From positions 1 through 20,510 of the forward strand of contig JBBCAV010000307.1 of the NCBI GenBank assembly GCA_051382305.1: 20,510 bases of DNA. The letters run 5' to 3'. This stretch comes from Bdellovibrionota bacterium FG-2. Its GTDB lineage: Bacteria > Bdellovibrionota > UBA1018. The notes under the pieces are model-generated. The model saw nothing but the letters and a program-made list of their open reading frames with translations. It had not been told where the DNA came from and did not search any database. Position numbers and translations under genes: made by a program. Below are positions 2,355 through 20,510 of the stretch, piece after piece (position 1 is the first letter of the stretch; each line of letters opens with the position of its first letter).

Positions 2355-4031
2355 TTAACGCTTCGCAGGTCGAACCTCAGGTACGGTAAAAAGTTCTTTC
2401 TCGAAAACGAATTTAGCCGCTTGAGCTACCTCAAATACGCCATCTAAAGACGTGGCGTTTCTGAGTGTCCAAACGCATTCTTTTACCGAACGGAGCCGGC
2501 CGACATTTAGCTGGCTACGAATTTGAAGAGGCTTAGCTTGTGAGCAGTCTTGCCGCTTTTGGTCCAATACAATCAACCCCGTTGGGTAGGTCTTGAGAAA
2601 AGATTGAAGATCTTTGCGCGTTTGAGCAGAAGTGAAGTTACACCCTACGGCGTCTCTAATGAAAAAGGGGTGCGAGTAGGCCCCACCAATGAATTCAAAA
2701 TAGAGGCTCGGGATATCATTTGCCCAGCAGTGATCGTGTAGGAGAAACACCGGGAGGCCGGTCGCTCGTATTTCCTGGTAGGCAAGATAATAAAAAGAGA
2801 AGTTGCGGGGTATCGTCCGAATCCGATCTCTGCTTGCCCACGTATCTCGAGCCATGGAGGCGGCCATTGAGGCGACAAGCGCGAAGAGTCCGAATGACAA
2901 CGTCAGTGGCATAAGGGCACTGAGAGTTTCGGGTAGGCACTTATTCAGAGATTGCGCCGCACGTGTGAGACCTCCTACGAGTGACTCTAAACTTAGGACA
3001 AAAACGGCGAAACCGAGGCCAAAAAACGGGCTGAAGTAGCGCGACCCAAAGCCATAGCTCGAGCGAGCGCGACAATAGATAAAAAAGGCCGGCGTGACTA
3101 GGCAGAGAAGAATCAACAAATGAGTGATCCGTTTGCGATCAAAGACAAACAGACCAATAAAGAGGGTGATTCCTAAAATATAACGATGCACTGGGAGGCC
3201 AAGATACGAGATGAACTCCTGCCACAGCCCCCATCCGGCGTTGGCAACATCAAGAAACAGGCGCGGTGTCCAAGAAACCTGGGCGCCACTTGGGGGCTTA
3301 TTCATTAAAGCGGTGAACGCAGGTTCGTTCAAGTATCGGGTCGCAACGCAAATGCAAGCGAGTACAGTGATGAGTCTGATTAGTTTATTCCATTGTTTCA
3401 TCCGGATGCTGTCAAGGGCGCGCAGCCCATAGGCTCCAATAATAAGCGGGAGCGAAAAAAAATGCGTGTTGGCAAAGAGCAGGCTTGCGAGCGCTAAAAC
3501 TCGCTCGGAGGCTCGGGGTATGAGGAGTGCAACGGAGCACCAGAGCAGGGAGACCAAAGACACTAACGAATAGTGCCGGGCTTCGGCTGAGTAGCCTACT
3601 TCGACACCGTGTTGAGTGATCCATGCACCCGCAAAGAAGGCGAACGCTACGGCGATCCAGGGCGAAAGCCCGGGTCGCCTAAAATGGCGAAGCGTGATGC
3701 AGTAGGCGGCAATGATCGTGACCAGGCTAAAAAATAGGCTAGGAATCCGCAAAGAGAGCTCGTCATGGCCGAACAGCGGAAACCAAAAATATTTTCGAAG
3801 AAAAAAATCGAGCATCGGTTGAAACTGCGACCACAATTTCGCTCGGAGGTCCCATAGGTCGGTTGAGGCAAAAACAGGGTAGTTGTGGTGAGCTTCATCT
3901 TCCCAAAATCCCCGCGTTATTTGGGGCAGGCGCAATTCGAGCGCTCGTGTGAGGAGTAAGAGGAGGGCGCTGATGATGGCGGTGGGGAGAAGGATTCTTT
4001 TGGTGCTGAGTCGCGCTAAATAATTTCCCAT
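2355..4031 (-). CDS. Polytopic membrane GT-C fold glycosyltransferase (GT39/PMT/ArnT-like)
   Basis: FWEDEA after TM1, QPM..F, ELSLRIPS, YSAEARHYSL and RYF motifs, about 10 hydrophobic segments, soluble C-terminal domain. Lies near a polyprenol-P GT2. Confidence 0.75.
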   Translation of the reverse strand: MGNYLARLSTKRILLPTAIISALLLLLTRALELRLPQITRGFWEDEAHHNYPVFASTDLWDLRAKLWSQFQPMLDFFLRKYFWFPLFGHDELSLRIPSLFFSLVTIIAAYCITLRHFRRPGLSPWIAVAFAFFAGAWITQHGVEVGYSAEARHYSLVSLVSLLWCSVALLIPRASERVLALASLLFANTHFFSLPLIIGAYGLRALDSIRMKQWNKLIRLITVLACICVATRYLNEPAFTALMNKPPSGAQVSWTPRLFLDVANAGWGLWQEFISYLGLPVHRYILGITLFIGLFVFDRKRITHLLILLCLVTPAFFIYCRARSSYGFGSRYFSPFFGLGFAVFVLSLESLVGGLTRAAQSLNKCLPETLSALMPLTLSFGLFALVASMAASMARDTWASRDRIRTIPRNFSFYYLAYQEIRATGLPVFLLHDHCWANDIPSLYFEFIGGAYSHPFFIRDAVGCNFTSAQTRKDLQSFLKTYPTGLIVLDQKRQDCSQAKPLQIRSQLNVGRLRSVKECVWTLRNATSLDGVFEVAQAAKFVFEKELFTVPEVRPAKR

Positions 4032-4319: not shown

Positions 4320-4832
4320 ATGAACATACCAGAACAAATAACTACATTTAGCGATTATCAAGGGATCAGTGAATCCTTCTCATTGACTCCCGCAACTCAG
4401 GGCTACCACGCTAGTTGGAGCGGATTTTGTCGAGCGAGTAGCGCCGCCAATATCATTGGCCAAGTGCCGGTGGGCACTTTCCTTGAAATCAAAGACCGAA
4501 AGTTCTCAGGGGAAAGTCTGATTGTTATTAGGAGGGGCGATTTTGAACGCCTGGTAAAATCGTCACGATCATCGTCCCAGATCAAGAAGGTGCTCTTCTC
4601 TATTGAAAAGACCGTTTTGACATTTCAACCTGGTACTGACCCCACAAACATAATTCAGGCGGTAAAGGAAATCGCGAGTCTTGGTGTCGAGTTGGCGCAG
4701 CCAATGCCAGAATTCTCGACTGCTGCAAAATATATTGCCCATGCACATGCAGCTAGGGAGGATAAGACCGAGATTGACTTCGAACTTCCCAAGACTAGGG
4801 CTGAGTTGAGACGTGGCGTCAAAAAAAAATAG
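4320..4832 (+). CDS. Hypothetical protein (170 aa), possible antitoxin-like protein
   Basis: AGGAGA RBS. Overlaps the next gene. The segment FLEIKDRKFSGESLIVIRRGDFERL loosely resembles a Phd/YefM-type fold. Confidence 0.6.
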   Translation: MNIPEQITTFSDYQGISESFSLTPATQGYHASWSGFCRASSAANIIGQVPVGTFLEIKDRKFSGESLIVIRRGDFERLVKSSRSSSQIKKVLFSIEKTVLTFQPGTDPTNIIQAVKEIASLGVELAQPMPEFSTAAKYIAHAHAAREDKTEIDFELPKTRAELRRGVKKK

Positions 4833-5294
4833 GCTTGATCTCGATGTCGAGGATTTGTGCAAGTCGCTCGAGGGCAAGCACACGACCGAGGGCTGGTCTG
4901 CGGCCAAGAAATGGTTTCAAGATCAATTTGGCGCTGATGTTGGTAAAAGACTGAAGTTCTTAGATTCCATCGTCTACGCGGGAAATCCCTATGTCTATAA
5001 TCCGGGTTCTGGTGTTCAAGAATTCAAAGTTTTGCAGGGGGACATTATTCGCTCAACCCTTGTCAAACTCCCGAATCAACCGGAGACCTGTATTGGAAAT
5101 CTTGCGTGTTTTGAGGAGGTTTCCTACATCGAAAATACTGTTCTACAGGTTGCAGATCGGGTGGCAAGCCTCAGCGACGTTGGTTGGCACCTTTCAATTC
5201 CTTCCTTGTCCATACATTCGCAAGACCCTCTTTGGATGATCTCAAGATTCGCGCGAACTCGAGGCCCTCAATGGTGAGTCCTGAAAAAGACTGA
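4813..5294 (+). pseudogene. Hypothetical LQGDII-motif protein with apparent frameshift near 5192
   Basis: After RVASLSDVGWHL, adding one T to the ctttc at 5191-5195 gives FNSFLVHTFARPSLDDLKIR...PEKD* ending at 5294. This reads as a more protein-like C-terminus than the tracked one. Confidence 0.5.
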
Positions 5295-5991
5295 TCTCGG
5301 GAGCCATTATCTTTCTCGCATTGTTCTCGTCGGGGTCTTTCAGTCGAGTCCTACTACCATCGTTGAGCATGGGCGCTATTTCGCCGATCTTGCAAAAAGG
5401 CTGTCAGCCAGTGTTACTGTCGCTGAAGTCAGCGATTCGGCCCCCGCGGAGGTCCCCCGGCTAATTGTAAACTTTGAAAACATAACCTATGCTCTAGGGC
5501 TCGATCGAATCTCGGTAGCCGTGGTTCCTCGCGCCCCAGAAATGCCAGCTCCAGATGGTGATTTTAAGAATTGTATTTTGGAAGCGAGGCAGGAGATCCG
5601 TAAATTCGCGGAACAAGAATCCCTTGCGATCAGCTTCTGTGGTGTTTTAGTAACAGCAAGATGGCCTTTTTCGCTTCAGACACCAAACGAAGAGATCGCT
5701 GAGTTTCTGTGCCGAAAGTTACTGGGTGGAAAACGATTTGCCGAGGCAGTCGCCTCGTTTTCATTTCAGATTGGAAAAAAGGTTGGAGAATTCTTCGTCA
5801 ACTATCAAGCGCGTTCATTTGAGGTTAGGGCGGTCGCGGTTGACTCGTCGACACTAATGGAGCGTGGTGTGGAAATATTGTTCGACGTTAATAACAGGCC
5901 AAAGATCAATAAGGGCAATGTAGGGGATGAACTCTGTGCGCTGGAATCGGCTGCCCGGAGGGAACTAAACGCTTTGGTTCCCAGTCTCTAA
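5281..5991 (+). CDS. Hypothetical protein, TIGR04255-like; longer than the tracked ORF 5521-5991
   Basis: The frame is open from 5278: LKKTDLGSHYLSRIVLVGVF...DSAPAEVPRLIV...DRISV, continuing to ERGVEILFDVNN. Probable CTG start at 5281 after GGTGAG. Confidence 0.55.
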   Translation: MKKTDLGSHYLSRIVLVGVFQSSPTTIVEHGRYFADLAKRLSASVTVAEVSDSAPAEVPRLIVNFENITYALGLDRISVAVVPRAPEMPAPDGDFKNCILEARQEIRKFAEQESLAISFCGVLVTARWPFSLQTPNEEIAEFLCRKLLGGKRFAEAVASFSFQIGKKVGEFFVNYQARSFEVRAVAVDSSTLMERGVEILFDVNNRPKINKGNVGDELCALESAARRELNALVPSL

Positions 5992-6225
5992 AAATGCCGA
6001 AGCGTGATGCAGTAGGCGGTCGTCAGCCGCGAGCACGTCTTCTCTGATCCTCTTTAAGTCATTAAATAGGGCTCGGTCGTCCTCAAAATCAATATTTGAA
6101 CAAAGCGCGTTGTCCATGGCTGTATAGTTAAAAAAATCTCCAAAGGAAATCACAGCCGTAAAACCAGAAGTAAGTAAGTCCAAGGTCTTTGTGGGCGAAA
6201 CTTTGAAAAACCAACCCTTTTTCAC
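5965..6225 (-). CDS. Small hypothetical protein (86 aa)
   Basis: GGAGA-like RBS upstream on the minus strand. DDRALFNDLKRIREDVLAA looks like an amphipathic helix. Convergent overlap with the previous gene. Confidence 0.4.
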   Translation of the reverse strand: MKKGWFFKVSPTKTLDLLTSGFTAVISFGDFFNYTAMDNALCSNIDFEDDRALFNDLKRIREDVLAADDRLLHHASAFLETGNQSV

Positions 6226-6291
6226 TTCGGTCTTTCTCCAATCGGCTTAAATGGTCTCGGCTCCGCATTGTCCTTTTCAGCTTTGGGATGC

Positions 6292-6322
6292 AGAAACAAA
6301 ACAGGGAACCTTGCGGCTCCCT
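6292..6322 (-). terminator. Rho-independent terminator-like hairpin
   Basis: Minus strand reads AGGGAGCC-GCAA-GGTTCCCT then GTTTTGTTTCT. The GNRA loop and a G-U pair work only on the minus strand. Confidence 0.65.
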
Positions 6323-6629
6323 GGGGTTGTAACACTTGTTGCTTCCTATAAGGAACCACCAAGGGGTTATAAGTAACCACCTTTATACCTATCCTTCATT
6401 TGCTGTCTATCGTAACTTTTTTGCGCCGGGGTGCACGAATTAGCCCTTGAATGTTTGGGTGCGGCTTGGAGCATTTTTGAAGGATTTTGTGGCGCCAGGT
6501 TGAAAATATTACACGGCCTTTCGATGGCCGGGCATCCAGATCAATCATCCCCTGAATCCTTAAGTGAAAATACTGTGTAAATTCAAGGCGACAAATCAGG
6601 GCGGACCCCGCTTTCCGCTTGGATGCCTC

Positions 6630-6646
6630 TTGGTATAGCTGTTGCT
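6630..6646 (+). promoter_or_regulatory. Sigma54 (-24/-12) promoter of cassette 1
   Basis: TTGGTATAGCTGTTGCT has GG-N10-GC spacing with TTGC at -12, about 40 nt upstream of the precursor ATG. Confidence 0.75.
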
Positions 6647-6685
6647 ATGTGCACAGAGTCAAAAATGATGAAGGGGAGATACTTT

Positions 6686-6952
6686 ATGAAGAAAAATTTG
6701 ATTGGTTTTCCGTTTCTTGGTTTGGCTTTGGCGGCTTCGGTGTTCGCAGGAGAGAATCCTATGGGCAAGGCGCAAAGTCTGGAAAGTCGTGTGCGCTTGG
6801 AGCGGGGTTCTCAGAACCCACTGATTGTGGATCTAAGATCCCGGATCGAGGCGATCAATGAAATGAACGGCGAGAATGGAAAAACTTTTATCGACCTTGA
6901 CGCACTGGAAAAGGAAATGAGTCATTCAGGAGTTACTGTTTCATCGGGTTGA
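6686..6952 (+). CDS. Secreted peptide, putative RiPP/signal precursor (88 aa)
   Basis: AAGGGGAG RBS 7 nt before ATG 6686. Sec signal MKKNLIGFPFLGLALAASVFA. Tail EKEMSHSGVTVSSG is Ser/Thr-rich with no Cys. Directly upstream of a LanM-type dehydratase. Confidence 0.78.
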   Translation: MKKNLIGFPFLGLALAASVFAGENPMGKAQSLESRVRLERGSQNPLIVDLRSRIEAINEMNGENGKTFIDLDALEKEMSHSGVTVSSG

Positions 6953-6996
6953 TTTCTTCAGTGGCTTCAGACTAAAATTCACCCTAGTATTCAGAG

Positions 6997-8124
6997 GTGA
7001 CTAAAGAAATTTTAGGGGATTCGCATAATTTCGCACGTCGTGTTCAAAAATCAAACGATGGTAGCATTTCCAAGCCAAGGTGTTTGATTTGGGAAGAGTC
7101 GTTCTTGTCCAAAACAGGGAGAATTCGAGTCCTTATTGATTCGGTTTTTCAAAAGGCAAATCTGCCGTCCCCGATGAGGATGGCACCTGAATTGGAGTTC
7201 CAAGTGTTTTCTGACCCCTTTGTTTCTGGGGTAGTTGAATGCCTAGAGTTAGGGTTTGCCACCTATGAAGACTTGAGCCCAGAGCACTTGTCGCTTATTG
7301 GGGGCGTGATTGCGATCTGCACTTGGTTTGGGATTACAGATTTGCATGTCGACAATCTCGCATTTGGAAAAAATTTAACCCCCGGCGGCCAGGTTACCTT
7401 TTTTCCCATCGATATTGAGTGTATTTTTGAAAAGGTGATGCTCCCTTCGCAGACCAGCCTCGTCTCAAATCCTCACGCACTGAATGGGATTTTTGATAAG
7501 GCTGGTCTTTTTCAGTTAAGGGAACAGGGTGCCTGGGAGAATCCTCTAAACTTTGCTTCACTCCTTGATGGGTTCATGACCGCGATGGACTGCCTGGATA
7601 GTAACGCTCATACCATTTTTGAGTCACTATTGAAAATGAAGGAAGTGCAGGGGGCCCCTATTAGAGTAATTGCTCGTGCCACGAGGACCTATGTTGAATT
7701 GGGACAAGATCGTCATGCCCTACTGGAACCCTCACTTTTGCCTAGTGAGAGTGAGCAGCTTGATCGTGGAGATATTCCGTATTTTTTTAGGACGCTAACA
7801 TCTTCAGCGGTCTTTCATTATTCTTCTTTTGAGGGTGCGATTCAGGCCTCGGGTTGGACAAAAGACAAGAATGGGTATTTTGACGTGCCAGAGGTTTTCA
7901 TCAGCGATCATCTTGAAGGAAAGGTGGATTTGCAGGAATTTTCAAGAAGAAGGCATGCGGCGAGCGCCCTTCAACTTGTGCGATATTTTTCCCCAAAACT
8001 CCAAGGTGACAAATACAGTATTGGGAAAACTACGGTCTCGCTGTCTCATGAGATGATTCAGGTTCGCTATAGGGATCAACCACTATTTGAAACAAACCGA
8101 GCGCCTGTTTTGGAGTCGAAATGA
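6997..8124 (+). CDS. Stand-alone LanM-type dehydratase/kinase domain (DUF4135) without a LanC cyclase domain
   Basis: LanM N-domain motifs in order: GDSHN..R.V, KPR, TDLHVDN, PIDIECIF, IRVIARATRTY, EQLDRGDIPYF. Only 375 aa. Stop overlaps the next start (ATGA). Confidence 0.88.
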   Translation: MTKEILGDSHNFARRVQKSNDGSISKPRCLIWEESFLSKTGRIRVLIDSVFQKANLPSPMRMAPELEFQVFSDPFVSGVVECLELGFATYEDLSPEHLSLIGGVIAICTWFGITDLHVDNLAFGKNLTPGGQVTFFPIDIECIFEKVMLPSQTSLVSNPHALNGIFDKAGLFQLREQGAWENPLNFASLLDGFMTAMDCLDSNAHTIFESLLKMKEVQGAPIRVIARATRTYVELGQDRHALLEPSLLPSESEQLDRGDIPYFFRTLTSSAVFHYSSFEGAIQASGWTKDKNGYFDVPEVFISDHLEGKVDLQEFSRRRHAASALQLVRYFSPKLQGDKYSIGKTTVSLSHEMIQVRYRDQPLFETNRAPVLESK

Positions 8125-9647
8125 GGTCGCTTTTTCTTCTTCTCCTATTTTTTTCTATTAACAGTCTTGCATCTGAAATGAGGTCAGCGAAAATGCTAAA
8201 GCTTTCATCTTCTACCGCTTCTTTTGCTTTTGATCCGACTTTGGCCCGAGGTTATCAGCAGTTTATGCTGCTAGGACTGTTTTGCGATACTCTTGTACGG
8301 TTGGGAGAGTCTGGGGCCATTGAGGCTGGTATCGCCGAATCTTGGAAGTTTTCTCAAGGACCCGGCAGTCATCGGTTTACTTTCAAGCTCAATTCTCAGG
8401 CGCGATTTCATGATGGGCGTAAAATCAATGCTCGCGATGTTGCATGGAGTTTGTCGAGACATTTTTTTTCTAACTCGAGTTCTATCGTGAAAACGTATCT
8501 GGGGGGAGCCCTCAAGAACACTGCAATTTCTCCTTCCAAATTGCTTGAGGCGATTCAGGTGGAAGGTGATGATACTCTGAGTGTCGAGCTTAAGGGTCCT
8601 TATCAGCCTTTTCTGAGTATTTTGGCCTCGCCTGCGTTTTGTGTGTTGCCTCAAGATTTTGACATAAACAAGCCAGTGGGGTCGGGTCCATATTTGGTTG
8701 AGACGGCCTCAAAAGATGGCAAGACTCTTCTGACTTCTGCGCCCGGTTTTATTGGCAATCCCCCTTTCTTTGGACGGATTTCAGTTACAATACTTAAATT
8801 TAAGGATGAGATTTTGAATGCTTTTAAGAAGGGTGACATTGATTTTGCCTTGGGAATTCCATTTTCTGAGTTTAGAGAGGGAGATTTGCCTGCTGATGGA
8901 GCTTTTCAGCACGGAAATAGTCTTTCAATAACCAGCATTTTTTTGAATCTTAATCGTACCATGTTCAAGAGTCGGGATTTTAGAAAAGACTTGGCTGCAC
9001 TTTTCAATTTGGTGAAAAACTCTCCGGGTGCCATGAGTAGTTTTGATCGGTTGCAGACGAGTTTTTTGCCGATTGGTATCATGCCGCAGTCGTATTATGA
9101 GCGCTCTGCAATCAATATGAGCCCCGCCGCGTTTAAAAAGAAGTGGGTGGGGCAGATTCCTGCTGAATTGGATATCGTAATTGCGATGGGTTTTTGCACA
9201 CCTGAATACAAAACAGCGCTCGCTAGTGTTTTTGAACAGGCGGGCCTGAGTTATCGAATACGGGAACTCAAAGGTGAACCTTTGTTGCAGGCGATGTTTA
9301 AAGGCGATTATGATCTTGCTTTTGTTCCCTACGCGGGGCTTCTCCCGGATCCAGACGGATTTTTAGATCTACTCAGTCCTGAAGGGATCATGAAGGCGGG
9401 ACAGATCCCAAGTGCGAAGGTAATACAAGCGCTTGAAAAAGTTCGCTTTGAAAGTGATACTCAATTGCGGCTTAAGGGATATGAGGGGGTCCTCAAGCCC
9501 TTTGAAGAGGACTATTATCTTATTCCTATAGCGCAGCAAAATTTGCCCGTATTGTATCGGAAGGGTTTGCATGTGCCGGATTCTAAGTTTCGGTTTCATC
9601 TGGATTTGAGGGGGATACGATTGGAGAGTGGCAAGCCAAATGGCTAG
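8121..9647 (+). CDS. Family 5 (OppA/DppA-like) solute-binding protein, orphan
   Basis: Signal peptide. FDP, DTLVR..G.I..GIAESW, FTFKL...ARFHDG.KI.A.DV.WSL and PVGSGPY motifs. No permease or ATPase gene adjacent. Overlaps the kinase start. Confidence 0.9.
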   Translation: MRSLFLLLLFFSINSLASEMRSAKMLKLSSSTASFAFDPTLARGYQQFMLLGLFCDTLVRLGESGAIEAGIAESWKFSQGPGSHRFTFKLNSQARFHDGRKINARDVAWSLSRHFFSNSSSIVKTYLGGALKNTAISPSKLLEAIQVEGDDTLSVELKGPYQPFLSILASPAFCVLPQDFDINKPVGSGPYLVETASKDGKTLLTSAPGFIGNPPFFGRISVTILKFKDEILNAFKKGDIDFALGIPFSEFREGDLPADGAFQHGNSLSITSIFLNLNRTMFKSRDFRKDLAALFNLVKNSPGAMSSFDRLQTSFLPIGIMPQSYYERSAINMSPAAFKKKWVGQIPAELDIVIAMGFCTPEYKTALASVFEQAGLSYRIRELKGEPLLQAMFKGDYDLAFVPYAGLLPDPDGFLDLLSPEGIMKAGQIPSAKVIQALEKVRFESDTQLRLKGYEGVLKPFEEDYYLIPIAQQNLPVLYRKGLHVPDSKFRFHLDLRGIRLESGKPNG

Positions 9648-11523
9648 TATGGAAGTTCGATCTCAATCGCTCGCGCGATTTCTTTTTGGGCGCCTTATGC
9701 TTTGGCTGGGGCTGGGATTTATTTTCTTCGCCGTCGTTTCGAGTTTCTATCTGATTCGTTTGACTAGGCAAATTGCTCGAGAACGAGCCGAAGTTTCTCA
9801 ACATTGGTTTACGGCGGGAATTCGAGAGGATGTTTTGTCGGGGATTGATTCTTCGAGCTATCGCAAATGTGAAATGCTTTTTTCTGAGAAATCAGTTTTG
9901 CGGGTCGAAGTCAAAACTTCAGATCGCGTGATATGTAGTCTTGAGAAGCCTAAGTGGGACCGGGGGATAGCCATAGATACGAGTGTTTTTTTTGATAGGC
10001 AGGAGAAAAATAAGGCTGCAACTCTGACTGTTTTTTACGATCAGTCTTTTGTGACGGAGTTGCTAGAGAAGATGCTGGTCTTTTTTGTGATCGTTCTTTT
10101 GCTTTTTCTTCCTGTATTTTATCTGTTGGTTCGTAGAGTAGATCGGGTTCTTTCGAGGCCGGTATCGATATTGGCGAATCGCTTCAAAGAAGGTTTGCCC
10201 GAATTCAGTGTCCCGGAAAAAGCGGAACTTGCACAGTCTGAGATAACTGAAATTCGGGATATTCTTGGAAGTTTCTTGGGTGCCTATTCTCGAATTCAAG
10301 CTTTTCAAGATCAGGCTCTCAGAGATGCGGCGTCAAGAAGTTTGGCCGCCATCGCCACCCAAGTCTCCCACGACATCCGCTCCCCCCTTGCTGCATTGAT
10401 CTCTGTTGCCCACAACAGCCCTGGTCTCCCGGAGGACTCACGCGTGCAGCTCAGAGAAGCCGCGAATCGAATTCGCGATATTGCGAATCAGCTTTTGGAA
10501 AAGAACCGCGAAAAGAAGCAGGAGAAACGCAATGTCTCAGCAGGCGCAGAGGGCCACGCGTCCGAAGATCCTCACTCCGGCGCCGGAGGCGCAGCGCGTC
10601 TTGATGGCATGTCCACCGAAGATCGCTCCACCCAGCTCCTCTCCGCCATCCTCGAGTCCGCTATCTCCTCAAAACGCCTGCAATACGCCGATAACCCACA
10701 AATCAAAATCGAATCACATACCGAGGATAGCGACTCTGCCTACGGACTTTTTGCGACACTTCAGTCGACCGAATTCTCACGCGTGGTTTCGAACCTAATC
10801 AACAACGCGGTCGAAGCTTTTGGTGAAGCGCCCATGCCCTCAAAAAAACCCGGGCGCGTCGACGTTTTCCTTCGAGACGAGCAGGGCAACGCTGTGATTG
10901 AGGTCCGCGATAACGGCAAGGGAATTCCCCCGCACCTTTTGGCAAAAATTGGCGGGCAGGGTGAGACTCATGGCAAGGCGGGCGGCTCGGGCTTGGGCGT
11001 GTATCACGCGAAGAAAACGATCGAAGCGTGGGGGGGCCGGCTTGAGATTGAGTCGCGAGAAGGCCCAAATGAAAACCAGGGCACGACGGTGCGAATGAAA
11101 CTGCCGAAAGCGGCGGCGCCCGGGTGGTTTGCGCCGAAGATTCCGGTGGAGGGGATACGAACCATTGTCGTTTTGGACGACGATCCAGGCATTCACAAAA
11201 TTTGGGAGGGGCGGTTGGCGGCGCGTGTGGGGTCGCGAGAACAGGTGGTCGTGCTGCATTTTTATTCCGCGCAAGAGATTCTTAAATGGTATCGCTCGAG
11301 CCTGGGCATGGGCGAAGCTGGCGATAACCCGCTGTATCTTTGTGATTATGAGCTGGTGGGTTCAAAAGAAACGGGCCTCGACGTTATTGAAAAGTTGGGC
11401 ATAGCTCCGCAAAGCATTTTGGTGACCAGTCGCTACGATGAACCCGCCATTCAAGAACGCTGCGTGCGGTTTGGGGCAAAGCTGTTGCCCAAGGGACTGG
11501 CGCATCGGGTGCCGCTGGGGTGA
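9628..11523 (+). CDS. Membrane hybrid sensor histidine kinase (2 TM, HisKA, HATPase_c, C-terminal receiver-like domain)
   Basis: Two TM helices flank a short periplasmic domain. H-box QVSHDIRSPL, N-box NLINNAVEA, DNGKGI, GSGLGV. Receiver-like VVLDDD...LCDYEL...GLDVIE...LVTSR. Exact start may be 9640 or 9649. Confidence 0.93.
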   Translation: MASQMASMEVRSQSLARFLFGRLMLWLGLGFIFFAVVSSFYLIRLTRQIARERAEVSQHWFTAGIREDVLSGIDSSSYRKCEMLFSEKSVLRVEVKTSDRVICSLEKPKWDRGIAIDTSVFFDRQEKNKAATLTVFYDQSFVTELLEKMLVFFVIVLLLFLPVFYLLVRRVDRVLSRPVSILANRFKEGLPEFSVPEKAELAQSEITEIRDILGSFLGAYSRIQAFQDQALRDAASRSLAAIATQVSHDIRSPLAALISVAHNSPGLPEDSRVQLREAANRIRDIANQLLEKNREKKQEKRNVSAGAEGHASEDPHSGAGGAARLDGMSTEDRSTQLLSAILESAISSKRLQYADNPQIKIESHTEDSDSAYGLFATLQSTEFSRVVSNLINNAVEAFGEAPMPSKKPGRVDVFLRDEQGNAVIEVRDNGKGIPPHLLAKIGGQGETHGKAGGSGLGVYHAKKTIEAWGGRLEIESREGPNENQGTTVRMKLPKAAAPGWFAPKIPVEGIRTIVVLDDDPGIHKIWEGRLAARVGSREQVVVLHFYSAQEILKWYRSSLGMGEAGDNPLYLCDYELVGSKETGLDVIEKLGIAPQSILVTSRYDEPAIQERCVRFGAKLLPKGLAHRVPLG

Positions 11524-11538
11524 AGAGGGGTTGCGCAG

Positions 11539-12011
11539 GCTCTCGGGCGCTGGCAAAGCTTTTTATTCCACATCCGCTTGTATGTATCCCGCCGCACCCG
11601 ACAGCGAATACGGATGGGAGAAGCTGTTCAGCTTTGGCCCTGAAGGGACCTGGAACGGGGGCAAGGAAAAAGCTCCTGCTGCTTTGTCGCGTAAAATCGC
11701 AGGGGCTGCCGATGGCGGCGAAATCGAAATTTGGCCACAAGGATCCAGTGACGGGAAACAAACCCGCTCGTTTCTGTATATTGAAGAGTGCTTAGAGGGC
11801 GTTCGCCGTTTGATGAATTCTGATGTTACAGGCCCTGTCAACATCGGCTCCGAATAGATGGTCAGCGTTTTTGAACCTAGGGCTTTGCCGAAATGATCAT
11901 GAAAACCGCGGAGAAAAAGGTGACGATTAAGAGTATTCCGGGTCCGGTGGGAGTGCGCGGACGCACTTCGATGCCGCTGAATTAAGGGGCAGATGGCGAA
12001 GGGGTGAGTGG
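11539..12011 (+). pseudogene. Decayed GDP-mannose 3,5-epimerase-like SDR fragment, repeat copy A
   Basis: FYSTSACMYP, DSEYGWEKLFS (YxxxK), GKEKAPAALSRK, QTRSFLYIEECLEGVRRLM, PVNIGSE, GPVGVRGR. Carries deletions, a stop and frameshifts, and lacks the N-terminal Rossmann motif. Confidence 0.85.
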
Positions 12012-14641: not shown

Positions 14642-15013
14642 GTGCCAGGCAAAACATTTGGGACATTTTTCAGAGCGCAGCGGATGAAGCGCAAGCTCAC
14701 GTTACGCAAATTTTGTGAAGATCACGAATTTGATCCTGGGAACATTTCAAAAATTGAGCGGGATCTGTTTAGTGCTCCTCAATCTGATGAAAAGCTCCGA
14801 GAATATGCCAATGCGCTGTTGCTTGTAGAGGGATCGGATGACTGGGTTGAATTTTTTGATCTTGCCTCTGTCTCAAACAAGACGGTAGGCATCGGTAGAA
14901 TCAGCGATGAAACGCTCCTGAGAAAATTGCCCGTTCTGTTTAGGACCCTTGAAAATAAGGAGCTGACAGAAGAAAAGTTAGATCAGTTGATTGAGTTGAT
15001 TCGTAGGTCTTGA
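14642..15013 (+). CDS. XRE-family HTH transcriptional regulator
   Basis: FG.FFRAQRMKRKLTLRKFC...DPGNISKIER HTH signature. GAGG RBS. Confidence 0.88.
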   Translation: MPGKTFGTFFRAQRMKRKLTLRKFCEDHEFDPGNISKIERDLFSAPQSDEKLREYANALLLVEGSDDWVEFFDLASVSNKTVGIGRISDETLLRKLPVLFRTLENKELTEEKLDQLIELIRRS

Positions 15014-15017
15014 AAGT

Positions 15018-15602
15018 ATGACGTCGTTCCTGACTTCCGCTGACATCGACAAGGCCGTGAATGCGTTTTTGCAGAAGTTTCACCCGAGTCGGTCGATCCC
15101 CATCCCCGTAGAAGAGATAATCGAAACTGAAATTGGCGCTGCAATCACAACGATTCGCGGTCTTATGGACGAACTCAGCATAGACGGCTTTTTTTCAAAC
15201 ACCTTTGATGAATTGTTTATAGATTACCACATTTTTATGAATAGAACGCCTAGGGCTCGGTTTACATTTGCACACGAATTGGGCCATTTCTGGCTGCATT
15301 ACGATTACGTCACTGGACAAGAAATTCCCTCCACTCAGTTCTGGAAGCAAATGAAGATGGAGCAGCAGAACCAAGATCACTCGCGCTTCGAAGTTCAGGC
15401 GAATATGTTCGGTGCGCAGCTGCTTATGCCCAAAAAAGAAATACTTCGGGAGTTTAGCCGTATCAAGAAGGCTTACGAAATAAAGGCAAAACAAACCTTT
15501 CCTGATGCAGTCATCGCTCCGTATGTCGCAAAAGAGGTTGCCAAAATATTCATGGTCTCCGAAGAATCTGCCGCGTATCGGTTAAAGGATTTTTTCAAAT
15601 GA
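15018..15602 (+). CDS. ImmA/IrrE family metallo-endopeptidase (Peptidase M78/DUF955)
   Basis: IPIPVEEI, RARFTFAHELGH (HExxH), EVQANMFGAQLLMP, F.VS..AAYRL. Confidence 0.92.
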   Translation: MTSFLTSADIDKAVNAFLQKFHPSRSIPIPVEEIIETEIGAAITTIRGLMDELSIDGFFSNTFDELFIDYHIFMNRTPRARFTFAHELGHFWLHYDYVTGQEIPSTQFWKQMKMEQQNQDHSRFEVQANMFGAQLLMPKKEILREFSRIKKAYEIKAKQTFPDAVIAPYVAKEVAKIFMVSEESAAYRLKDFFK

Positions 15603-16810: not shown

Positions 16811-17788
16811 ATGAAGATCAGAAACGTTTTACGTTCGCTTCTTGGCGTGACGAACCGCGATCTCAATGAGGCAATTCAAGCGGAGCAAGCAGAAGGGGCT
16901 GCATTCGAACGTTTGCTTTTCCCCATCGCGTGTCTCAAAGATTTTTACCTGATTCAGTTTTATAAGATGACCGATAGAGGAAGGGCGATTGCTGGTTTGG
17001 GCGCAGATTGGGATGAAAAACACGCTTATCGCAAAGCGGTATTTGAATATTTCGAGCGTAAGGCGGTCATTTCGCTAGGTCCCAGCCTTGGCTTCGATTC
17101 AACTAACGGCGTTGGTGCCCACCGATATCCGGCTTTGGCTTTTCGTGCCGGCATGAATGAACTTTTTGAAAGAGATTCATTTTTGCGACATTGGTATTCT
17201 AAGACCCCTTTTTCTAAGATTGAGGGTTCTCTCACATCCTCAAATCGAGTCTGGGTCGACGACATGGATCAGCGAGGATACAGGACCCTGTTCTGCAAGA
17301 CTCATCTTGGTTTTCTCGCCACTACCCTCGTTTTCTTGATCGACCGCAAAACCGGCGGTTTTGCGCTCGGGCTCTCTAGTGGACGGGGAGGGGAGGAAGA
17401 TGCTCAAAAGGCTTTCATGGAGGCTGCGACCAATTTGTTTTTTGGAAATGAGGGGAAGCAAAATGAGGAATTGATCTCTCGGGTTAAGGTCCATGGGATC
17501 ACGTCACTCATTGATCATCGGACCAATTGGCTCTTAATTAATCCGGTTCCCAGCTGGGTACTTTCTCTTGTCGAATCTACCGATCAGCAAATCAGAGTTG
17601 GCAAATTGAGGGACCCGAAAGTGGAGCGCGTAACCCTCGCGATGGCGCCAGTGCCGGTTGTGGGCGCTCGATGCGAAGATTCTTTGAATTTGGTGCTTGG
17701 ACTACCCAACGAACGTGACCTCGCTATACTTCGGCGATCCCAACTTCATCCTATCGACGACGATTTTGTTCCGCATCCAATCCCATAA
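16811..17788 (+). CDS. ycaO: Stand-alone YcaO-family protein (azoline-forming type C-terminus)
   Basis: KAVFEYFER, STNGVGAH...NELFERDS (ATP-binding motifs), KAFMEA, and the Pro-rich C-terminus VPHPIP. Alternative TTG start at 16763. Confidence 0.9.
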   Translation: MKIRNVLRSLLGVTNRDLNEAIQAEQAEGAAFERLLFPIACLKDFYLIQFYKMTDRGRAIAGLGADWDEKHAYRKAVFEYFERKAVISLGPSLGFDSTNGVGAHRYPALAFRAGMNELFERDSFLRHWYSKTPFSKIEGSLTSSNRVWVDDMDQRGYRTLFCKTHLGFLATTLVFLIDRKTGGFALGLSSGRGGEEDAQKAFMEAATNLFFGNEGKQNEELISRVKVHGITSLIDHRTNWLLINPVPSWVLSLVESTDQQIRVGKLRDPKVERVTLAMAPVPVVGARCEDSLNLVLGLPNERDLAILRRSQLHPIDDDFVPHPIP

Positions 17789-18044: not shown

Positions 18045-18203
18045 ATGAAGAAGATGCTTTTCGTTGCTTTGGCAGTATTGGCTACACTGACTGAGTTCCT
18101 ATTGGCCCGGGGATTCAAAGTCGAGGAATACAAAAGTTCTACAAAAGAGAGCCACATAGCCCGGGATGGGACTTCTACTTGTCGAAGCGTACGTGGTGGG
18201 TGA
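18045..18203 (+). CDS. Unannotated 52-aa signal-peptide-bearing putative RiPP precursor
   Basis: Hand translation: MKKMLFVALAVLATLTEFLLARGFKVEEYKSSTKESHIARDGTSTCRSVRGG*. GAGGG RBS. The stop overlaps an in-frame GTG of the SBP gene (GTGA 18200-18203). Confidence 0.8.
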   Translation: MKKMLFVALAVLATLTEFLLARGFKVEEYKSSTKESHIARDGTSTCRSVRGG

Positions 18204-19714
18204 TCGTTCCTAAGCATAAGTCTAGAATTGCTGTCTTAGGGGTATTTCTCATGGCTTTGAATCAAAGCACACCAATAGAAGCAAGCGTCTCTCTTGCCAA
18301 TCGTGAACCTGAGATTCGGGTGGACCAAAAGCCAACCTTGCCGATGGATCCTATCAGGATTCAGTCTATGGCGGATTACGATCTGCAGTTGTGCCTTTAC
18401 CGCACTTGGTTTGAGTACGATTCGTCTCGAAAGGCAAAGTCGGGAATTGTCTCAGAGTGGTCTTTTGATTCCAAAAGGGGGGTATATCGCTTTACGATAG
18501 CTCAAGATTCCAAGTGGTCAGACGGGAGTCCTGTTCTATCCGGGCAGTTATTGAAAAACCTTAAACGGGCGGTTGCACTTAAGACCACCTTTGGCGAAGC
18601 AGTCCAAGGATTGATCAAGCTTGAAAATGCAAAAGCACTTGATGATCGTAATTTTGAGTTAGAAACTCGAGATCATCAACCTTCTGAGAAATTTTTTCAA
18701 CGAATGGGCTCGAGCTTTCTTGCCCCGGTAAATCCTGACGATTGGGACAAAGACTTTCTTCTTAAAAGTAATCGTCTGACCAGCGGTCCTTATAGAATTG
18801 TTGCAAGTGATGCTCAAGAGCTCAAATTGGAGGCGAATCCAAATGACAAGACTTCGCCGAAAACTCGTCCACTGACTGTTGCCATTCGGTTTCAGCCTGT
18901 CACGGATTTAGCCGCCTTTGTCGAAGGAAAGTCCTGGGCAAATGTGTTGCAGACAGCAACTTTGATGCCCAGCCAACTTGCGGAAAAAGTGAAGAACCGA
19001 AACCTCCCGTATTGGACACGTGGTTTTGATCGTGTATCAAGACTAATGCCCGTAGGGGCGGGAAAAGTACTCGAGGGCCGGAGGAAGTTAGCTTTAGCAT
19101 TTGGCGCTGTGTGGGCCGATTTCAAGGTTTCCTCTTTGCCTTTCAATTCGAGGAAAGCCAATAGCCTCCAGCCCCCGGGCTATCCACTTTTGACTGAGTT
19201 GGATTTTCGCTCTTTTCTAAAAAATGGAGCGGAAAAACTGAAACGATCTGTAAAAATTGTCGCTTTAACTTCTCCTCAGAATGATTTTCAATCGCCGCTT
19301 ATCTTAGCGGCTTTTCAAACCCTTGGGATTCAAGTTACGTGGGTATGGGCAAAATCTTTTGCCGAGTTAGACAATTTAGTTTTACAGGATCTGACTATTG
19401 ATTTTCAATTAGGAAGCTTTGGTGTCGCCGATCCTGAACCAACGACTTGGATGGGCCTAATTCTGACGGAAAACTCCCCATTTGTAGAAGTAACTGCTTC
19501 AGATCTCTCCACATTCAAGAGAATTGCCGCGATCCCCTCGAAAGAGGAGGAAGTTAAGAAATTTCAATTGCTCTTAAGGGAAATGGGGTTGCGCGGGAGC
19601 TATGTTCCCTTATTTCATTTTTCCACTCTGTCATTGGGACAACCGGGTATCAGTTTTGAAAATGTTCAGGAACTTGATGAAACTGTCGACTATTCGAAAC
19701 TCATTGTTAAGTAA
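18200..19714 (+). CDS. Family 5 solute-binding protein, orphan
   Basis: MDP, SGIVSEW, YRFTI...KWSDGSPV, TSGPYRI, YVPLFH. GTG 18200 preferred over TTG 18179. No permease or ATPase adjacent. Confidence 0.88.
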   Translation: MIVPKHKSRIAVLGVFLMALNQSTPIEASVSLANREPEIRVDQKPTLPMDPIRIQSMADYDLQLCLYRTWFEYDSSRKAKSGIVSEWSFDSKRGVYRFTIAQDSKWSDGSPVLSGQLLKNLKRAVALKTTFGEAVQGLIKLENAKALDDRNFELETRDHQPSEKFFQRMGSSFLAPVNPDDWDKDFLLKSNRLTSGPYRIVASDAQELKLEANPNDKTSPKTRPLTVAIRFQPVTDLAAFVEGKSWANVLQTATLMPSQLAEKVKNRNLPYWTRGFDRVSRLMPVGAGKVLEGRRKLALAFGAVWADFKVSSLPFNSRKANSLQPPGYPLLTELDFRSFLKNGAEKLKRSVKIVALTSPQNDFQSPLILAAFQTLGIQVTWVWAKSFAELDNLVLQDLTIDFQLGSFGVADPEPTTWMGLILTENSPFVEVTASDLSTFKRIAAIPSKEEEVKKFQLLLREMGLRGSYVPLFHFSTLSLGQPGISFENVQELDETVDYSKLIVK

Positions 19715-20510
19715 GAACCTTTTTCGCCACGGGCTTTTGCTTGGGTTGCTTTTTTGGTTGGGGGCTCAAATCCCTTTCACGCTTGTTGTGAGTCAGTATT
19801 TTTTCCATCAGGAAATCGCAGCGGACCTTTCGCAACAGGCCTCACTTCAAAAATTACTGACTGAACTTTATGAACAAGGTGCTCGATTTGGAGATATCGT
19901 AAATGCCAGAGGCGCAGTTCTCAAGTTTGGTGCACCCTTTGGCCTCAAAGACTTAGGCGTTTGCCGGAACGGCCGGGAAATCTTGCCTCGACCCTTGGAA
20001 TCTCGTTGTAAGAGTGAGCCTAGACAATGGGTTCCTGTTCAGACTTCTGCGGGAAGGATTGATCTTGAGTTTCAATGGACCCCTCCGTCGATTTCTGACC
20101 ACAGTATTCCCCTTCGTGCAATCGGTGGCAGCGCGATGCTCAGTCTATTTCTGGTTCTTGGGGTGGTCATTCTGCTTAGCAGGAAGCTTTCCACTTTAGT
20201 CTCTAAGCTTGCTGGTCAAATTGCTTCATCCCGATCCTTAGATACCTTGACGCAATTATCCTCAGAGCTCGAAGAACTTACACCTATCAGCTCCGCCCTA
20301 CATATTGCCAAGACTCAGTTAAATGAGTCTTTAAATGAAAATCTGAAACTGAAAACAGAAGTCGCGGTCGGTAATCTCGCCACCCAAGTCTCCCACGACA
20401 TTCCGATCCCCCCTTGCTGCATTGATCTCCGTCGCCCACAACAGCCCTGGTCTCCCGGAGGATTCACGCGTGCAGCTCAGAGAGGCCGCGAATCGGATAC
20501 GCGATATTGC
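19704..20510 (+). CDS. Second membrane sensor histidine kinase (partial, runs off the window; +1 frameshift near 20402)
   Basis: Hand translation from TTG 19704: MLSKNLFRHGLLLGLLFWLGAQIPFTLVV (TM1)...AMLSLFLVLGVVILL (TM2)...LATQVSHDI, then RSPLAALISVAHNSPGLPEDSRVQLREAANRIRDI after removing one base. Confidence 0.88.
   Translation, partial: MLSKNLFRHGLLLGLLFWLGAQIPFTLVVSQYFFHQEIAADLSQQASLQKLLTELYEQGARFGDIVNARGAVLKFGAPFGLKDLGVCRNGREILPRPLESRCKSEPRQWVPVQTSAGRIDLEFQWTPPSISDHSIPLRAIGGSAMLSLFLVLGVVILLSRKLSTLVSKLAGQIASSRSLDTLTQLSSELEELTPISSALHIAKTQLNESLNENLKLKTEVAVGNLATQVSHDIPIPPCCIDLRRPQQPWSPGGFTRAAQRGRESDTRYC
20377..20510 (+). repeat. Near-identical copy of 10352-10484 (HisKA coding region)
   Basis: Manual alignment gives about 7 substitutions, all synonymous, plus 1 inserted base in about 133 bp. 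No similarity is visible upstream of tcgccacccaagtc. Confidence 0.92.

Follow-up and report, generated by a model that had tools for sequence, protein, structure and literature searches.

Cyclase-less LanM-like enzymes with cysteine-free substrates are already in print. As outlined in a review, PoyF from the pathway of the proteusin polytheonamide is a stand-alone LanM-type dehydratase, which dehydrates one threonine without forming a ring. In the accessible text of the phospeptin report (Paoli et al. 2022), EmbM is described as an enzyme that lacks the elimination residues and by which two threonines of the Cys-free peptide EmbA are phosphorylated. The accessible part of the dehydrazole study states that DUF4135 proteins shorter than 500 amino acids (aa) were dropped, which leaves the family described here outside that survey. 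In this work we analysed a stretch of 20,510 nucleotides (nt) from Bdellovibrionota bacterium FG-2 (contig JBBCAV010000307.1, positions 1 to 20,510 of the forward strand), called hereafter the window. It holds a gene for a 375-aa LanM-type protein next to a gene for an 88-aa peptide, followed by genes for a periplasmic solute-binding protein (SBP) and a membrane histidine kinase. We propose that this enzyme recognizes and modifies the adjacent peptide, and that the set of four genes may form a compact peptide-signalling cassette, with the following features.

6686..6952, + strand: precursor peptide gene, 88 aa, with an ATG start and a purine-rich ribosome-binding site a few bases upstream
6686-6748, + strand: putative Sec-type signal peptide, precursor residues 1-21, with a small-x-small cleavage site, assigned by eye
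6887-6910, + strand: predicted recognition motif, precursor residues 68-75 (hydrophobic-Ile-Asp-Leu-Asp-x-Leu-Glu), from conservation in relatives
6911-6949, + strand: Cys-free tail, precursor residues 76-88, with five Ser/Thr and ending in Ser-Ser-Gly, read from the sequence
6997..8124, + strand: predicted DUF4135 stand-alone minimal LanM-type Ser/Thr kinase/phosphate lyase, 375 aa, from Pfam, profile, fold and residues
8121..9647, + strand: periplasmic SBP of the SBP_bac_5 family (peptide/nickel/opine type), 508 aa, with an N-terminal signal-peptide-like segment, Pfam 124.6 bits
9628..11523, + strand: membrane histidine kinase, 631 aa, HATPase_c 81.4 bits, HisKA 21.6 bits and under its cut-off

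The enzyme gene opens with a GTG codon at 6997. Since an in-frame stop codon lies 12 nt upstream, this GTG is the sole start in that frame with which the conserved Gly-Asp-x-His segment at the N-terminus is retained, and conservation of the N-terminus across the enzyme family supports the 375-aa form. The public gene call for the same protein (P0001) is 339 aa long and starts 36 residues late, which would cut away three catalytic residues, Asp8, His10 and Lys26. The protein matches the Pfam family DUF4135 (PF13575, the LanM dehydratase domain) with 40.6 bits, for a gathering cut-off of 29 (E 2.3e-10), in an alignment that spans residues 187-238 only. No match to the LANC_like domain (PF05147) was found in it by Pfam, the protein stopping at residue 375, and the full-length LanM model TIGR03897 gives 35.4 bits, far under its cut-off of 304.

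A profile of the enzyme family, built from 26 homologues and run against the Protein Data Bank (PDB), retrieved the LanM enzymes CylM (5dzt, E 4.3e-5) and LicM2 (6st5, E 0.0031). It puts the segments Gly-Asp-Ser-His, Asp-Leu-His-x-x-Asn and Arg-x5-Thr on CylM residues ~250-254, 346-352 and 505-511, respectively. According to the accessible text of the CylM paper, phosphorylation depends on Asp347, His349, Asn352, Asp364 and Lys274, and phosphate elimination on Asp252, His254, Arg506 and Thr512. We observed that all nine catalytic residues have an equivalent in the window enzyme: Lys26, Asp115, His117, Asn120 and Asp139 for phosphorylation, and Asp8, His10, Arg223 and Thr229 for elimination. 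In an alignment of 118 family members, His10, Lys26, Asp115, Asn120, Asp139 and Arg223 are invariant, and Asp8, His117 and Thr229 are conserved in at least 90%. The AlphaFold model of the enzyme has a predicted local distance difference test score (pLDDT) of 88.8 and a predicted template modelling score (pTM) of 0.91. When this model was compared with the PDB by Foldseek, the top matches were CylM (E 1.7e-6, template modelling score 0.54 on the query) and LicM2, followed by the lipid kinases VPS34/PI3K. Judged by profile and predicted fold, the 375-aa protein is a LanM kinase/lyase core that lacks both the cyclase and the N-terminal ~250 residues.

Sequence searches indicate that the enzyme belongs to a sizeable group of short stand-alone proteins. 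A word-indexed search gave 92 relatives of 308-469 aa, 86 of them with a precomputed DUF4135 match; those listed with an organism name are all from Fluviispira and Silvanigrella (Bdellovibrionota, class Oligoflexia). The full profile search, which covered 1.84 billion cluster representatives, returned 1737 matches at E ≤0.001, 552 at ≤1e-10 and 376 at ≤1e-30; the length is between 254 and 407 aa in 149 of the best 150 matches. With one genome per species, 131 loci encode an enzyme relative. Eighty of them (L001-L080) were kept for comparison; they are mostly labelled Polyangiaceae/Myxococcota, with few Oligoflexia, Bdellovibrionaceae, Bdellovibrionales and Oligoflexus. In the sample of the window's own phylum, an enzyme match is present in 33 of 401 genomes, that of the window included, and a tblastn search of this whole genome found the DUF4135 gene once. 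Longer enzyme forms of 552-596 aa, without the cassette, were also observed (L130, L104, L110). The larger Polyangiaceae/Myxococcota branch, with proteins of ~400 aa, has a conserved Cys-rich C-terminal tail (three Cys with Ser/Thr around them) that the window protein does not have; this tail may form a metal site, or else represent a fused substrate.

The 88-aa peptide encoded just upstream of the enzyme has no match in Pfam or in NCBIfam. Signal peptides of the precursors were judged by eye, from hydrophobicity and the presence of a small-x-small site, and the N-terminus of the window precursor is indeed hydrophobic, with a Kyte-Doolittle 10-residue maximum of 2.26. The peptide contains no Cys at all and so has no Cys-containing, ring-forming core of the LanM type. 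It does not have a nitrile-hydratase-like or Nif11 leader either: it belongs to no family and carries, in place of such a leader, the putative signal peptide and the 8-residue motif.

A small open reading frame (ORF) directly adjoins the enzyme gene in relatives of the phylum, mostly upstream of it, and encodes the motif followed by a tail of 10-23 residues. The family motif reads hydrophobic-(Ile/Val)-(Asp/Asn)-(Leu/Val/Met)-x-x-(Leu/Ile/Val)-Glu. We searched for it with a regular expression, requiring that the motif end 4-35 residues before the stop. Over all fetched loci, 45 of 13,725 small ORFs carry it (twice-fetched loci being counted), and 40 of these 45 lie within a narrow zone flanking the enzyme, which holds 780 ORFs (duplicate loci again counted). 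Without duplicates, a motif ORF is present in 20 of 30 loci of the phylum sample. In the extended set of 32 loci (L111-L142), the succession expected for a precursor and its maturase in a RiPP system (one for peptides made by ribosomes and modified after translation), namely a recognition sequence and then a variable core encoded beside the enzyme, was found in 26; five of these ORFs were seen by inspecting the gap between kinase and enzyme genes, and the motif ORF is doubtful in L120 and L138. In the 80 one-per-species loci, only four have a motif ORF (L001, L003, L030, L048), none of them labelled Myxococcota or Polyangia.

In 21 aligned precursors, the Glu of the motif is the only invariant column. 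All 21 tails contain Ser/Thr, which account for 87 of 313 tail residues by a hand count. The precursors occur in two forms. The long form, of 72-101 aa, has mostly a signal-peptide-like segment, with Kyte-Doolittle 10-residue maxima of 2.0-2.7, and is found in the window and in L111, L113-L115, L118, L119, L121 and L122. The short form, of 22-40 aa, is preceded by a good ribosome-binding site and consists of barely more than Met, motif and tail. Most short tails, as well as that of the window, have a Ser-Ser pair 1-3 residues from the C-terminus.

A sequence-only reading of the window had described a 375-aa protein with LanM motifs and no LanC domain, paired with a Cys-free, Ser/Thr-tailed peptide, and its description holds in our analysis. 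The coordinates are exact, the DUF4135 score, the CylM/LicM2 fold and the absence of PF05147 agree with it, and the "DLH" and "DIE" motifs that it quoted are Asp115-Leu-His117 and Asp139-Ile-Glu141. The acidic stretch and the Ser/Thr tail that it quoted are both present in the peptide at 6686..6952. It had also suggested looking at whether homologous precursors keep the Ser/Thr tail and lack Cys; the pairing with the enzyme proves to be conserved in the 26 loci mentioned above, and the tails keep Ser/Thr throughout, with Cys in only 4 of 21. A consistent association of the homologues with a separate LanC, which would have spoken against it, was not observed: an adjacent LanC gene is present in one of the 32 loci (L117).

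We then examined the predicted contact of the two partners. For the complex prediction, the enzyme alignment was combined with the last 42 residues of the precursor. The models score 0.82, 0.82 and 0.80, versus 0.02 for the best control; the docking mark thereby reached is passed by 58 of 80 solved complexes and by 2 of 110 mismatched pairs. At least 59% of the contacts are common to the runs, and the partner pLDDT is at least 56. The confident contacts of the peptide are residues 19-26, 28-30 and 32-33 of the 42-mer, that is precursor residues 65-72, 74-76 and 78-79, which correspond to the motif and the first residues of the tail. On the enzyme side, the contacts are residues 148-162, 321-329 and 362-371, that is the loop after the metal-binding Asp and a C-terminal helix and strand. 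The C-terminal subdomain (~residues 300-375) is thus the predicted leader-binding surface. We know of no solved LanM-leader complex, so it is unlikely that this result derives from a memorised structure. Within the limits of a model, the docking supports the binding of the motif to the enzyme.

The two genes that follow appear to be part of the same unit. The SBP gene start overlaps the enzyme stop by 4 nt and the kinase gene overlaps the SBP gene by 20 nt. From its sequence, the kinase has two hydrophobic segments round ~100 aa that are presumably periplasmic, then a His box and the HATPase domain, and it ends in a receiver-like extension; for its homologue in L116, Pfam finds Response_reg. 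No ABC (ATP-binding cassette) permease or ATPase gene was found by Pfam in the window ORFs. An orphan SBP beside a membrane kinase, with no ABC genes, is the arrangement of an SBP-dependent sensor, and it is kept in 25-26 of the 32 loci: SBP_bac_5 is adjacent in 26 and the histidine kinase in 25, two further loci ending at a contig edge. By sequence, the closest PDB entries of the SBP are AapF (7kz8, E 1.2e-15), peptide, nickel and dipeptide binders, and MbnE (5icq, E 1.3e-7), and its solved relatives bind peptides, nickel/metallophores, opines and haem. MbnE is the binding protein for the RiPP methanobactin; thus there is a precedent for a family-5 SBP that binds a RiPP.

Further genes accompany the cassette in its relatives. 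A sigma-54-dependent response regulator is encoded in 14 of the 32 loci, and a transporter of the major facilitator superfamily (MFS; Pfam MFS_1) in 11, to which can be added four ORFs that agree with it in size and place but have no hit in Pfam. The order regulator, MFS, SBP, kinase, short peptide, enzyme is common to 13 loci. The placement of the peptide-enzyme pair varies: in those 13 loci it follows the kinase, whereas in other loci it precedes the SBP. Each of the 15 ORFs that are MFS or take the MFS position is in a locus with a short peptide devoid of signal peptide, and no MFS was found in the seven long-peptide loci scanned with Pfam. In an IQ-TREE phylogeny of the enzymes, 13 short-peptide-plus-MFS rows form one clade (support 100/99), L116 and L138 being placed elsewhere; the well-supported branches force at least two origins of this state. 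Some loci differ in their content: L118 and L122 have a prolyl oligopeptidase within the cassette, L117 has a separate LanC-like gene directly after the enzyme and a Cys-free peptide of 26 aa, and L126, from a genome of the same genus, has a radical S-adenosylmethionine (SAM) gene and a Cys-rich 116-aa ORF before its enzyme copy. Over the 80 one-per-species loci, which include the Polyangiaceae/Myxococcota branch (L004-L080), tblastn detected an SBP and a kinase near the enzyme in 5 and 6, respectively. Both the peptide motif and the SBP-kinase pair being absent from the Polyangiaceae/Myxococcota branch, the cassette reading holds for the Bdellovibrionota branch only.

Enzyme family, fold, catalytic residues, conservation of the gene set and of the motif, and docking are all directly computed, and the scheme that we propose is built on them. 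In the cytoplasm, the 375-aa enzyme would bind the 8-residue motif of the adjacent precursor and, with ATP, would phosphorylate Ser/Thr of the 13-residue tail and then eliminate the phosphate, giving dehydroalanine or dehydrobutyrine. The likeliest target would be the Ser-Ser pair beside the C-terminus, and no thioether ring would be made. The modified precursor would leave via Sec by its own signal peptide; in relatives with precursors of 22-40 aa devoid of signal peptide, the co-encoded MFS transporter would export it. The modified tail would then be the periplasmic ligand of the co-transcribed orphan family-5 SBP, which would set the activity of the adjacent histidine kinase and, in many relatives, that of the sigma-54-dependent response regulator too. 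As a whole, the cassette would encode both a peptide signal produced by the cell itself and the receptor for it, working in an autocrine or quorum manner.

The steps of this scheme are not equally probable. We consider the pairing of enzyme and substrate as highly probable. Given this pairing, dehydration is the probable outcome and a phosphorylated end product a doubtful one, dehydration being favoured because the four elimination residues of CylM are kept. The chemistry, the export of the modified form, its binding by the SBP and the signalling role are what we infer from the sequences, and for the entire chain, from dehydrated and exported peptide to sensing by the SBP-kinase pair, the chances seem to us evenly balanced. 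The sequence-only reading had proposed a linear dehydro- or phospho-peptide. The preserved elimination residues back the dehydro form of this product. The conserved SBP_bac_5-histidine kinase context, often with sigma-54 regulator and MFS, points to a signalling peptide more than to an isolated natural product. Neither the Sec-type signal peptide (residues 1-21) nor the SBP and the histidine kinase of the operon had been mentioned there. Its suggestion of an undescribed RiPP subtype is too strong for the enzyme-substrate idea alone, PoyF and EmbM/phospeptin being already known.

Several alternatives were weighed against a sensed dehydro-peptide. The enzyme might only phosphorylate the Ser/Thr of the tail, as does EmbM, and the phosphopeptide would be exported and sensed. 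EmbM is also cyclase-less, its action ends at a diphosphorylated Cys-free peptide and its cluster encodes a histidine kinase and a regulator, but its elimination residues are reported to be mutated, whereas the window's Asp8, His10, Arg223 and Thr229 are invariant or at least 90% conserved in the 118 sequences; a phosphorylated final product is thus unlikely in our view. The linear dehydro-peptide might also be a natural product, antimicrobial or inhibiting proteases, with the SBP and kinase serving autoinduction or immunity sensing as for nisin and subtilin. Lantibiotic clusters commonly hold a kinase and a regulator that sense the product, and the prolyl oligopeptidase of the L118 and L122 cassettes could free a small active peptide. 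Phospeptin, according to the accessible description, inhibits a protease. On the other hand, no immunity-type ABC gene, peptidase-domain exporter or further tailoring gene was found by Pfam in the window, the conserved partners are receptor components only, the tails are very short (10-23 residues), and the 12 receptor pairs of the genome, described below, fit signalling channels better than a dozen antibiotics. We regard this second possibility as quite unlikely.

An enzyme acting on another substrate, such as a lipid, a small molecule or the sensor proteins, with the small secreted protein being an accessory of the SBP-kinase sensor, would account for the fold shared with lipid kinases and for a DUF4135 alignment limited to residues 187-238. 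It is at odds with the persistence of the peptide motif and tail beside the enzyme despite changed gene order, with the docking, which sets precisely the conserved motif on the enzyme (0.82 vs 0.02), and with the retention of the LanM-specific elimination residues, so that we hold it for very unlikely. Finally, dehydroalanine is an electrophile, and the dehydro residues could be intermediates of cross-links: the peptide might form an internal lanthionine or lysinoalanine, or become covalently attached to the SBP or to some other protein of the periplasm. The single Cys present in 4 of 21 tails and the LanC gene adjacent to the enzyme in L117 would suit such a role, but 17 of 21 tails, that of the window included, have no Cys, and a tblastn search of the 85%-complete genome with the LanC of L117 found no LanC-like sequence; cross-linking appears very improbable, a little more so than a different substrate.

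Preferring the dehydrated signal peptide, we must still take into account the observations that weigh against it. No recognisable peptide was found in 4 of the 32 loci (L124, L126, L128, L130), and the SBP is missing from 6. The tails with a Cys, and the LanC-like gene of L117, already mentioned, count against it as well. In the window itself, Pfam detects no Response_reg in the receiver-like end of the kinase, and the cassette has neither a sigma-54 regulator gene nor an MFS gene. The family of the SBP also takes nickel, opines and haem, hence its ligand may be other than a peptide. The covariation of short peptide and MFS is real, but it comes from few independent events, with most loci in one clade. 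We know of no precedent among RiPPs for Sec export of a dehydrated protein. Dehydration is predicted from conserved residues only and, according to the accessible text on CcaM, this DUF4135 enzyme left its unmodified precursor unchanged in E. coli; conserved residues are therefore no guarantee of activity on the window peptide.

Near the end of the window lies a second, related set of genes:

16811..17788, + strand: YcaO-like gene, Pfam YcaO 41.1 bits for a cut-off of 25.7
18045..18203, + strand: 52-aa peptide with a signal-peptide-like start and Gly-x-(Ser/Ala)-Thr-Cys near the C-terminus, from conservation
18179..19714, + strand: SBP_bac_5, Pfam 58.1 bits
19602..20510, + strand: histidine kinase, an ORF that runs off the contig

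The 52-aa peptide is kept between the YcaO and SBP genes in 6 of 7 regions (the window and L163-L167), L168 having a different ORF of 121 aa, and homologues of the YcaO-like protein are found in 45 of the 401 genomes of the phylum. The same set is also present on another contig of this genome (74-80% identity) and in four other genomes. The end of the second kinase gene (20377-20510) is identical to the region ~10352-10484 of the first at 126 of 134 nt (94%), with one gap, in the His-box region. Immediately behind the His box, a 1-nt insertion puts the second kinase out of frame, at a point where the contig stops. The gene may be a pseudogene; alternatively, as the gene family is a repeated one, the frameshift may have been produced by the assembly.

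In the genome, tblastn shows many paralogues of the kinase, and Pfam scans round them, in this genome that is 85% complete, gave by our own count a total of 12 SBP5-kinase pairs. Ten of these adjoin a peptide maturase, which is of the radical-SAM type in five cases, of the YcaO type in four and DUF4135 in one. The radical-SAM genes are on contigs C107, C168, C102, C123 and C129, and the YcaO genes beside such pairs elsewhere in the genome are on contigs C216, C133 and C271; several pairs also have a sigma-54 regulator. The repetition of the receptor pair beside YcaO and radical-SAM enzymes suggests a general architecture and not a one-off. We tentatively propose, at somewhat less than an even chance, that Bdellovibrionota possess a modular family of unrecognised peptide-signal channels, with about a dozen orthogonal ones in this genome. 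Under the same tentative proposal, each channel would combine an exported ribosomal peptide of small size, a single maturase of RiPP type (mini-LanM, YcaO or radical SAM), a periplasmic family-5 SBP dedicated to it and a histidine kinase, to which a sigma-54 regulator would often be added.

With regard to transcription, the following element was noticed upstream of the peptide gene:

6631..6646, + strand: sigma-54-type -24/-12-like element, ~40 nt upstream of the ATG of the peptide gene; the window has no second match to the pattern

The number expected in the window is 0.08, and at least one match occurs in 8 of 100 shuffles. The site is not conserved in relatives: the strict pattern is found in 1 of 27 loci and a relaxed score of at least 5 in 2 of 17 upstream regions, versus ~4% of random windows, which leaves it as a weak lead. 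A scan of 5900-11800 for sigma-70 promoters and terminators gave no excess over shuffles.

The rest of the window shows some other features. Upstream of the cassette there are three ORFs, each 154-170 aa long (4320-5991, + strand); they were considered as a part of it and dropped, since tblastn finds none of them in 80 + 20 related loci. On the - strand, a 558-aa ORF (2355-4031) is located in a stretch with an unusually strong AT skew of 0.20-0.27. Neither this ORF nor the three others has a Pfam or NCBIfam match, and none is found in related loci. Directly after the kinase lies a 139-aa ORF (11438-11857) whose match to the NAD-dependent epimerase family is confined to the C-terminal end of that family, so that it looks like a gene remnant. 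At 14642-15602, a small helix-turn-helix (HTH) protein (HTH_19, weak and under its cut-off) is followed by an IrrE/Peptidase_M78 protein, a pairing typical of mobile-element or toxin-antitoxin-like regulators.

As for novelty, three items were not found in the searchable literature, which leaves subscription journals and supplements outside: a family of 340-400 aa with the 8-residue motif, precursors of such enzymes that bear a signal peptide or have 26 aa, and a fixed coupling to a periplasmic SBP, a histidine kinase and often a sigma-54 regulator. The class of enzyme is known; the architecture of the cassette, its recurrence with three types of maturase in one genome and the possibility of testing peptide signalling in this phylum would surprise a specialist. 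If our scheme is true, this would be a very compact leader-guided Ser/Thr dehydratase, with 375 aa, a motif of 8 residues and natural substrates down to 22-28 residues, of use in peptide engineering and in studies of leader recognition by LanM enzymes, as well as a case of a RiPP precursor with a Sec signal peptide. Self-made peptide signalling in Bdellovibrio-like/Oligoflexia bacteria would become directly testable, with ligand, maturase, receptor and kinase encoded in ~5 kb; in addition, the culturable relatives Silvanigrella and Fluviispira carry homologues of the enzyme. If the proposed family of channels exists, it would be a Gram-negative, periplasm-based counterpart of the modified-peptide quorum sensing of Gram-positive bacteria, and the 375-aa enzyme with 26-aa substrates would be the smallest natural LanM-type dehydratase system.

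Compared with class II lanthipeptide synthetases (LanM) such as CylM (5DZT) and LicM2 (6ST5), the window enzyme has in common the kinase/lyase fold and the nine catalytic residues, and guidance by a leader motif is presumed to be alike. It differs from them by its length of just 375 aa, without the N-terminal ~250 residues and the LanC cyclase domain, and by its Cys-free substrate. With PoyF, as far as the published description goes, it shares the absence of a cyclase domain and the kept elimination residues, whereas PoyF is set apart, by the same description, by a precursor with a nitrile-hydratase-like leader and a large multi-enzyme cluster. The window cassette has a single enzyme, an 8-residue motif, a signal peptide (an MFS exporter in relatives) and an SBP-kinase receptor. 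The resemblance with EmbM is broader in the available account: a cyclase-less LanM-like enzyme, a single Cys-free precursor, a two-gene core, and a kinase and a regulator in the cluster. However, EmbM stops at the phosphopeptide, whereas the window enzyme keeps the elimination residues that EmbM is described as lacking, and EmbA has a Nif11 leader with a Gly-Gly site; in the same account, no SBP is reported for EmbM. CcaM (LanMbC, dehydrazoles), in the accessible text, likewise belongs to DUF4135 and makes dehydro residues but not lanthionine, in clusters that also hold YcaO; it has, however, ~1015 aa, requires a zinc-free cyclase domain to which it is fused, and is leader-independent and azole-dependent.

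On the receptor side, LuxP-LuxQ, TorT-TorS and AioX-AioS-AioR are systems in which an orphan periplasmic binding protein is encoded beside a membrane kinase, often with a sigma-54 regulator and with no transporter genes. The window cassette shows the same arrangement of orphan SBP and kinase, but the ligands of these systems are small molecules made elsewhere, whereas here the ligand is presumed to be a ribosomal peptide encoded and modified within the cassette. On the signal side, nisin-NisK, subtilin-SpaK, AgrD-AgrC and ComX-ComP each rely on a ribosomal peptide that receives its modification from a dedicated enzyme and, once exported, is detected by its cognate histidine kinase. The scheme proposed for the window cassette follows the same succession of modification, export and sensing; in these Gram-positive autoinducer systems the peptide binds the kinase directly and crosses a single membrane, whereas here an SBP would be the intermediary, export would rely on Sec or MFS, and the signal would be a linear dehydro-peptide.

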